Source: Escherichia phage phiEco32
Strand: one strand, 5' to 3'
Sequence record: NC_010324.1
DNA length: 64,000 bases
In this document: positions 32,383 through 32,994 of the stretch, in pieces
Layout: each line of letters starts with the position of its first letter
Numbering within the stretch: position 1 is the first letter of the stretch
Notes under the pieces: generated by a model
What the model saw: the letters and a program-made list of their open reading frames with translations, nothing else
The model's database searches: none
What the model was told of the DNA's origin: nothing
Made by a program: the position numbers and the translations under genes

Positions 32383-32994
32383 TTAGTAAGACACGTCACC
32401 ACTTGAATGGGACATGTTGCTCTTGACGAAGTAGCAATACTTGCCAAGACCTTCATTAATTTCTTGAAGCATACTCTGATCGACTGGGTAAGTGGCTAAA
32501 TCACCATCAAACTCATCCATCTTCTCAATAATACACATCAAGGTCATGCACATATCAGAGAGCATACCGTCCATGTCTAGATCAGCATTACCCTCTGAGA
32601 ACCAAGCATGAGAGAGATAGTTAGCTGCTGTAGCATCCACTTTAACGCAGTGGTAACGCATACGTTCAGCAATACGATCTCCTACCTGTCGTGCGTAATC
32701 TTCCAGCTCATCAAACATACCATGAACACCCTGAAATCCTGCACCAGAGACGTTCCAGTGGTAGTTTTTAGCTTTGATATGCAAGAGTTCCATGTTAGCT
32801 TGTAAGCAGCTCAGGATGTGTTCTAGGCTGTTTCCACTAATCATACCCTGCATTGTTTCAAGGCGAGAGATTGATAGGTCGGACCGGTCTAACATGCTAT
32901 AGCTGTCACGACCAATCTCAGGTAAATCAAAAACATTCTTATGCATTTGGGTTTTCTCCATCAAGTTCAACTGAGTTAGCAACGTTACGTGCAA
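32383..32994 (-). CDS. Dps-like ferritin-fold protein
   Basis: LHIKAKNYHWNVSGAGFQGVHGMFDELEDYARQVGDRIAERMRY parallels E. coli Dps [26 protein letters not shown]...MAERAVQ; true start probably an internal Met. Confidence 0.55.
   Translation of the reverse strand: MHVTLLTQLNLMEKTQMHKNVFDLPEIGRDSYSMLDRSDLSISRLETMQGMISGNSLEHILSCLQANMELLHIKAKNYHWNVSGAGFQGVHGMFDELEDYARQVGDRIAERMRYHCVKVDATAANYLSHAWFSEGNADLDMDGMLSDMCMTLMCIIEKMDEFDGDLATYPVDQSMLQEINEGLGKYCYFVKSNMSHSSGDVSY

Follow-up and report, generated by a model that had tools for sequence, protein, structure and literature searches.

The window analysed here is the whole 64,000-nucleotide stretch of Escherichia phage phiEco32 (NC_010324.1). It is about 96% identical to some 97 records of Escherichia and Shigella phages, among them NJ01, SU10, Bas90/91 and MN03, which are Kuravirus (Gordonclarkvirinae, Mtkvariviridae), and the phage of the window is itself a Kuravirus, a prolate podophage of the phiEco32-like type. 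A G7C-like or N4-like (Gamaleyavirus) phage, which size and gene content might suggest, was rejected on the taxonomy of NJ01, SU10 and Bas90/91, the closest records. The locus described below lies on the minus strand and is composed of a gene for a Dps-like mini-ferritin, the upstream gene with which it is coupled (ORF109), a promoter region ahead of this pair and a hairpin behind it. The positions of these features are given in table 1.

Table 1. Features of the Dps-like locus, with positions counted in the 64,000-nucleotide window
Feature	Position	Strand	Remarks
Hairpin	32348..32376	-	11-bp stem; starts 7 nt past the stop codon of the Dps-like gene
Dps-like mini-ferritin CDS	32383..32946	-	187 aa plus stop codon; assigned from homology, structural model and annotation of relatives
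Ferroxidase codons D79, D90, E94	32712..32710, 32679..32677, 32667..32665	-	
Ferroxidase codons H63, W64, H75	32760..32758, 32757..32755, 32724..32722	-	
16 leading codons of the 203-codon frame	32947..32994	-	Outside the gene; 3' end of the upstream ORF, which is in another frame
ORF109	32939..33268	-	109 aa; phrog_10984; translationally coupled to the Dps-like gene
ORF109-Dps promoter region	33308..33351	-	Assigned from the conserved block, the SU7 annotation and published mapping
Three tandem paralogues	33341..33550, 33550..33759, 33759..33956	-	65-69 aa; all phrog_4939

Gene boundaries, neighbours and promoter

The open reading frame delimited mechanically has 203 codons and begins with TTG (32383..32994, minus strand), and the block LHIKAKNYHWNVSGAGFQGVHGMFDELEDY...ERMRY lies inside it. 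The frame is real and holds a genuine Dps-family gene, whose match with the family is well above chance. The start of the gene is the ATG at 32946. A Shine-Dalgarno sequence, GGAG, is found at 32959..32956, with a spacer of 9 nt before this ATG; the ATG shares nucleotides with the stop codon of the ORF before it (ATGCATAA); MH(K/N)N is the N-terminus in all homologues; and the CDS annotated in Bas91, SU10 and SU7 have the identical start. Within the 16 codons 5' of the ATG, SU7 has in-frame stop codons. A reading of the letters and their open reading frames, made before this analysis (the sequence-only reading), had supposed that about 50 codons at the N-terminus of the frame may be untranslated. 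The start evidence and the SU7 stop codons reduce their number to 16. The 187-residue product has a computed mass of 21,196 Da, equal to the 21.2 kDa given in the SU10 paper (PMC4281155). Its residues 1-40 form an N-terminal extension, which is under purifying selection (dN/dS of 0.18 against SU10).

Searches of Pfam and NCBIfam with ORF109 gave no match. The structural model of its product (pLDDT 75) is a small SH3/KOW/Tudor-like beta-barrel with helices on its flanks, and the Foldseek matches of this model were weak, generic small barrels, none of them significant (best E = 7e-3). In GAP52, BUCT695 and LAh_8 the gene immediately before the Dps-like one is a homologue of ORF109, in SE131 the two are 1.3 kb apart, and the pair with overlapping frames is found in Kuravirus, Suseptimavirus, Crifsvirus, Libingvirus and Lahexavirus.

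Downstream of the Dps-like gene there are an ORF of 59 aa (hypothetical in relatives; SU10 gp066), a thioredoxin gene and ThyX, while upstream of ORF109 there are three tandem small paralogues, a dCTP deaminase and a nucleotidyltransferase. The genes for ThyX, thioredoxin and dCTP deaminase are all within 2 kb of the Dps-like gene, and the Kuravirus region around it is without ribonucleotide reductase. Grimontviridae and Lahexavirus possess the Dps module too, and there NrdD or NrdG adjoins it: GAP52 and BUCT695 have NrdD as the direct neighbour of the Dps-like gene, and LAh_8 has NrdD/NrdG close by. The homologue of a Streptomyces phage is located near ThyX and ribonucleotide reductase.

Some further observations concern these neighbours. 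Each of the three phrog_4939 paralogues, which occupy the interval between the dCTP deaminase and the ORF109-Dps promoter, ends in ...YY or ...HY. The 456-aa protein encoded at 34500..35870 (minus strand), called 'nucleotidyltransferase' in the annotation of relatives, has a sub-threshold match (18.7 bits, cut-off 23) to the head domain of poly(A) polymerase/CCA-adding enzyme. Just past the Dps-like gene of SE131 there is a gene of 99 aa (4411..4710) with a weak match to the N-terminus of NrdD (phrog_487, 1.3e-4), and at the same place GAP52 and BUCT695 have a full NrdD; the short SE131 gene may be what is left of an older order in which Dps and NrdD were neighbours.

The promoter region of the ORF109-Dps pair has a sigma-70-like element, TTTACT-16-TATGAT, at 33351..33324 and a phage-sigma element, AAATGTATA, at 33316..33308, which matches the published consensus for the phiEco32 sigma factor gp36, tAATGTAtA. 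A promoter block of 35 nt is invariant among the window phage, SU10 and SU7, and the SU7 record annotates a promoter at this position. Upstream of CDS68, the first middle gene of SU10, a sigma-70 promoter and a phage-sigma motif have been reported, and the middle genes of that phage are CDS25-68 (PMC4281155). Since the promoter is placed at CDS68 and CDS25-68 form the middle class, the Dps-like gene comes second in the middle cluster, that of replication and nucleotide metabolism (the identity of gene 68 follows the SU10 numbering). The motif alone is no evidence, because in the whole window TAATGTATA with at most one mismatch has 20 matches against 20.4 expected, without enrichment. The site at 33308..33316 was accepted because of its position, the invariant 35-nt block, the SU7 annotation and the published mapping. 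Scans of the region for sigma-70 promoters and terminators were overall not above shuffled expectation.

The hairpin behind the Dps-like gene has a predicted RNA fold of -18.5 kcal/mol (z = -2.1). The stem is unchanged from Kuravirus to SU7, the loop is not, and the U-tract is weak. Possible functions are an attenuator, a terminator or an element of mRNA stability or processing, and the weak U-tract may point to an attenuator or a stability/processing element rather than to a strong terminator.

Family membership and ferroxidase site

The only Pfam match of the Dps-like protein is PF00210 (Ferritin), with 30.9 bits against a cut-off of 24.5, and among the PHROG families it matches phrog_3636 ('DNA binding protein', 3e-55). 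When the PDB was searched with phmmer, 60 Dps chains were found at E<=1 (best 3e-9), and the significant matches were all Dps. A profile made from 19 phage homologues only gave full-length Dps matches in the PDB (3e-22 to 1e-10), with B. anthracis Dlp-2, B. subtilis MrgA, Listeria Dps and E. coli Dps. The AlphaFold2 model of the monomer, built from an alignment of 90 sequences, has a mean pLDDT of 90.2 and contains helices A (41-65), B (71-98), BC (107-112), C (125-146) and D (154-176), together with an additional N-terminal helix at 22-37 that carries a conserved SxxRLExM motif. In a Foldseek comparison of the model with the PDB, the best 50 matches were all Dps subunits, with rmsd values of 1.1-1.6 A over approximately 134 residues. 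The earlier proposal of a Dps-like protein with a ferritin fold is thus supported by the Pfam Ferritin match above its cut-off, by the significant matches of the phage profile in the PDB (down to 3e-22) and by the superposition of the model on Dps.

Identity as a 24-mer ferritin or bacterioferritin was rejected, because the AlphaFold model has no fifth (E) helix after residue 176 of the kind found in 24-mer ferritins and the structural matches are all Dps. Ferritins and bacterioferritins are absent from the best 50 Foldseek matches, and among the sequence matches the only one of this kind is a single Dps-Bfr fusion. The score with the Dps equivalog of NCBIfam (NF006975) is 34.5 bits, below the cut-off of 114, and the identity to E. 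coli Dps is about 19% across the full alignment. We classify the protein, from its sequence, as a member of the Dps family and not as an orthologue of the host Dps.

In the gapless BLASTP alignment with E. coli Dps, residues H63, W64, H75, D79, D90 and E94 of the phage protein correspond to H51, W52, H63, D67, D78 and E82, and the same columns are occupied by H31, W32, H43, D47, D58 and E62 of Listeria Dps. The numbering of the E. coli and Listeria reference sequences agrees with the published ligand numbers. Four of the six residues (H63, H75, D90 and E94) are invariant in 90/90 aligned homologues, W64 is present in 87/90, and 76/90 have D or E at position 79, with D79 kept throughout the phage clade. 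The predicted set of inter-subunit ferroxidase residues is therefore complete and has the exact spacing of the family. The parallel with the ferroxidase-site helices of Dps that had been noticed in the central block is borne out by these six residues, which align without gaps, and the ligands, whose absence from a proper alignment would have spoken against a Dps, are present.

Other parts of the protein are different. The aspartates of the Listeria pore (D121, D126 and D130) are replaced by A151, P154 and S158, and acidic residues near the pore are found at shifted positions (D147, D149 and D156); the pore positions vary among cellular Dps too. Because of this replacement and shift, iron entry may differ or be impaired. 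The protein has a pI of 4.71 and a net charge of -15. Its N-terminal 40 residues have a net charge of -2 (1 Lys, 3 Arg and 6 Asp/Glu) and its C-tail one of -1, and no Lys/Arg-rich tail was found at either the N- or the C-terminus. Met and Cys are abundant, with 15 and 5 among the 187 residues (E. coli Dps has 4 and 0), and they cluster on helix C (DMCMTLMC), where the equivalent of the second Cys is widely conserved in the phage clade. This richness in Met and Cys could possibly reflect a redox function, binding of soft metals or merely packing of the core.

Distribution, selection and database labels

The Dps-like protein was matched by tblastn in 135 of 50,697 phage records. There are 96 full-length matches with 82-100% identity in the Kuravirus group, compared with about 97 related records, and the gene is near-universal within the phiEco32-like lineage. 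Matches of 30-45% identity are found in Grimontviridae (SE131, Privateer, GAP52 and BUCT695) and in Lahexavirus, and matches of 27-29% in one cyanophage and one Streptomyces phage. The sequence-only reading had called this not a common phage gene, which is correct for phages overall but does not apply to the phiEco32-like lineage. In the 50%-identity cluster representatives of a library of 1.84 billion proteins, only 13 matched below E=1e-10. The identity of about 19% to E. coli Dps, the 13 clusters and the equivalog score below its cut-off argue for an old, phage-specific branch of Dps and not for a recent capture from the host.

In Bas94, XT18 and XT73 the match to the Dps locus is split in two and a gene for an HNH homing endonuclease is annotated alongside it. 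The locus is therefore an insertion site of homing endonucleases in some relatives.

The Dps-like gene is under strong purifying selection. The core has a dN/dS of 0.03 against SU7, in a comparison in which dS is saturated (about 2), and at this saturated dS the 11-residue C-terminal tail, SNMSHSSGDVSY, has zero non-synonymous changes. The terminal Tyr is kept down to about 50% identity.

Many GenBank records of Kuravirus (among them IME267, ES17, CHD5UKE1, KM01 and EcoN5) label the Dps-like gene 'integrase'. No similarity to tyrosine or serine recombinases was found, the only Pfam match being Ferritin and the fold that of Dps, and we regard this label as an annotation error. It could lead to therapeutic phages that are strictly lytic being mistaken for temperate ones.

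Proposed role and related proteins

The reading that we prefer, at a probability of about 60%, is that the protein acts as a mini-ferritin consuming Fe2+ and H2O2 during the synthesis of phage DNA, and that the protection it affords is chemical. By homology with cellular Dps, it would form a hollow shell of 12 subunits with Fe2+ sites built across two subunits, H63 and H75 coming from one and D90 and E94 from its partner. Bound Fe2+ would be oxidised preferentially by H2O2 and then kept inside the shell as a ferric mineral, and both Fenton reagents would be removed while dNTP synthesis and the replication of phage DNA are under way. The protein would act alongside the products of its neighbours: thioredoxin, dCTP deaminase, the flavoenzyme ThyX and, where related phages encode it, NrdD, which is oxygen-sensitive. 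ThyX without its folate substrate is an H2O2-producing NADPH oxidase (PMC10439133). A strongly acidic protein like this one, without the basic tails through which E. coli Dps binds DNA, would be expected to protect chemically rather than by coating the DNA.

The linkage to nucleotide genes is not independent evidence for this role, because these phages (C3-morphotype podophages) share ancestry. Two points count against a protectant inside the cell: the homologue in phage Privateer is found in CsCl-purified virions, which such a role does not predict, and the benefit of a second Dps beside that of E. coli itself is unexplained. That practically all phiEco32-like and 7-11-like phages keep the gene, under strong purifying selection, implies that the lytic growth of these therapy-relevant coliphages benefits from the control of iron and peroxide or from another use of the cage.

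A protein that binds and condenses DNA, coating that of the phage or the host in the manner of E. coli Dps in stationary phase, is unlikely, even though PHROG and GenBank name the gene 'DNA binding protein'. This label seems to have come with the name of the family, and it is doubtful for the Kuravirus protein because of the low pI (4.7) and the missing lysine-rich tail; the extension, with its single Lys, and the C-tail are both net negative. Among cellular Dps proteins, several that lack a basic tail do not bind DNA. Of the roles suggested by the sequence-only reading, compaction of DNA is on account of this charge the least likely for the Kuravirus protein (pI 4.71, net -15, no Lys/Arg-rich tail). 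In the Grimontviridae homologues the N-terminus is short and rich in Lys/Arg (MLGARPKRP or MIPTKPKSSSK, for example), given which DNA binding is conceivable for the family as a whole, and the co-purification of the Privateer homologue with DNA-filled virions would also agree with it. It is likewise improbable that the shell serves, not as a protectant, but as a store or donor of iron for the iron-dependent enzymes of dNTP synthesis. Candidate recipients would be the di-iron centre of host NrdB and the Fe-S activase of the NrdD of related phages. An intact ferroxidase site, the place of the gene in a nucleotide-metabolism module and the position of NrdD, adjoining in GAP52 and BUCT695 and near in LAh_8, would fit a donor; the Kuravirus region, however, is without ribonucleotide reductase, and the neighbours ThyX, thioredoxin and dCTP deaminase need no iron. 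To our knowledge, Dps proteins are not established as iron donors for specific enzymes.

The structural additions to the Dps fold bear on a further reading, which we consider quite unlikely: the shell would be repurposed as a scaffold or virion-associated particle, with the N-terminal helix and the C-tail docking a partner such as the ORF109 protein. This partner would in turn link the cage with DNA, with the replisome or with the capsid. The conservation of the ORF109-Dps pair with overlapping frames in five genera, the C-tail SNMSHSSGDVSY unchanged at saturating dS, with its terminal Tyr, the extra helix with its conserved SxxRLExM and the detection of the Privateer homologue in CsCl-purified virions would all suit a scaffold. 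Yet the invariance of the ferroxidase residues suggests that catalysis has been retained, ORF109 has no significant structural match, and a dense 12-mer loaded with iron could reach the virion band as a mere contaminant; the SU10 sample in which the protein was detected by mass spectrometry had been purified by PEG precipitation only (PMC4281155). One speculative form of the idea, to which we give little weight, combines it with scavenging: the Dps shell and the SH3/KOW-like ORF109 protein would be a two-component module specific to C3-morphotype podophages, in which the barrel docks through the N-terminal helix or the ...SY tail and targets an Fe/peroxide-scavenging particle to replicating or packaged DNA. 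Such a module, if true, would explain the presence of the Privateer homologue in purified virions. That the gene is a decaying or functionless capture from a host is very improbable and is refuted by the data on selection and conservation, namely the core dN/dS of 0.03, the presence in 96 of about 97 related genomes and in several phage families, the detection of the protein by mass spectrometry and the identity of only about 19% to E. coli Dps.

The existence of a Dps gene in these phages is already known from the papers on SU10 and Privateer. The product in SU10, gp67, was called a DPS-domain protein in 2014; it is encoded by a middle gene that was present in all five C3 phages then sequenced, and it was detected by mass spectrometry (PMC4281155). 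It is the same gene as that of the window, with 97% amino acid identity, the same position after CDS68 and a product of 21.2 kDa. The SU10 paper covers the domain only, whereas the ferroxidase residues, charge, tails, partner ORF and selection are from the present analysis. A search of the literature on G7C or phiEco32 together with ferritin found nothing.

The Privateer paper of 2021 reported a 'DNA-binding Dps family protein' in CsCl-purified virions and noted homologues in Kuravirus (PMC7881722). This protein of a Proteus phage of the Grimontviridae (QIN94861) is 41% identical over residues 51-178 and is likewise encoded in a module of replication and nucleotide metabolism, but it is without the 40-residue N-extension and the C-terminal Tyr tail, the N-termini in Grimontviridae being short and basic. 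Dps-family genes are also carried by myophages of Lactobacillus plantarum, for which a role in limiting damage by iron and peroxide in the course of infection was proposed (PMC6669764), and by 'Gratiaviridae' and other gut phages, with the same proposed protection (PMC8008677). The Lactobacillus and 'Gratiaviridae' proteins are distant in sequence and belong to other phage lineages and hosts, and the Dps-like protein of cyanophage S-SRM01, with 27% identity and a similar protective role proposed for it, also comes from another lineage and host.

What is new here comprises the verified ferroxidase residues, the corrected start, the acidic and tail-less character, the conserved partner ORF, the promoter and the hairpin, the strength of selection and the recognition of the 'integrase' mislabel. 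In comparison with cellular Dps (B. anthracis Dlp-2, 1JIG; M. smegmatis Dps2, 2Z90; L. innocua Dps, 1QGH; E. coli Dps, 1DPS), the phage protein has the same fold, superposing at 1.1-1.6 A, and identical ferroxidase ligands, spacing and conserved Trp at an identity of only about 19-27%. It differs from them in its extra N-terminal helix, its conserved C-tail, its greater acidity, the absence of a Lys-rich tail and its shifted pore aspartates.
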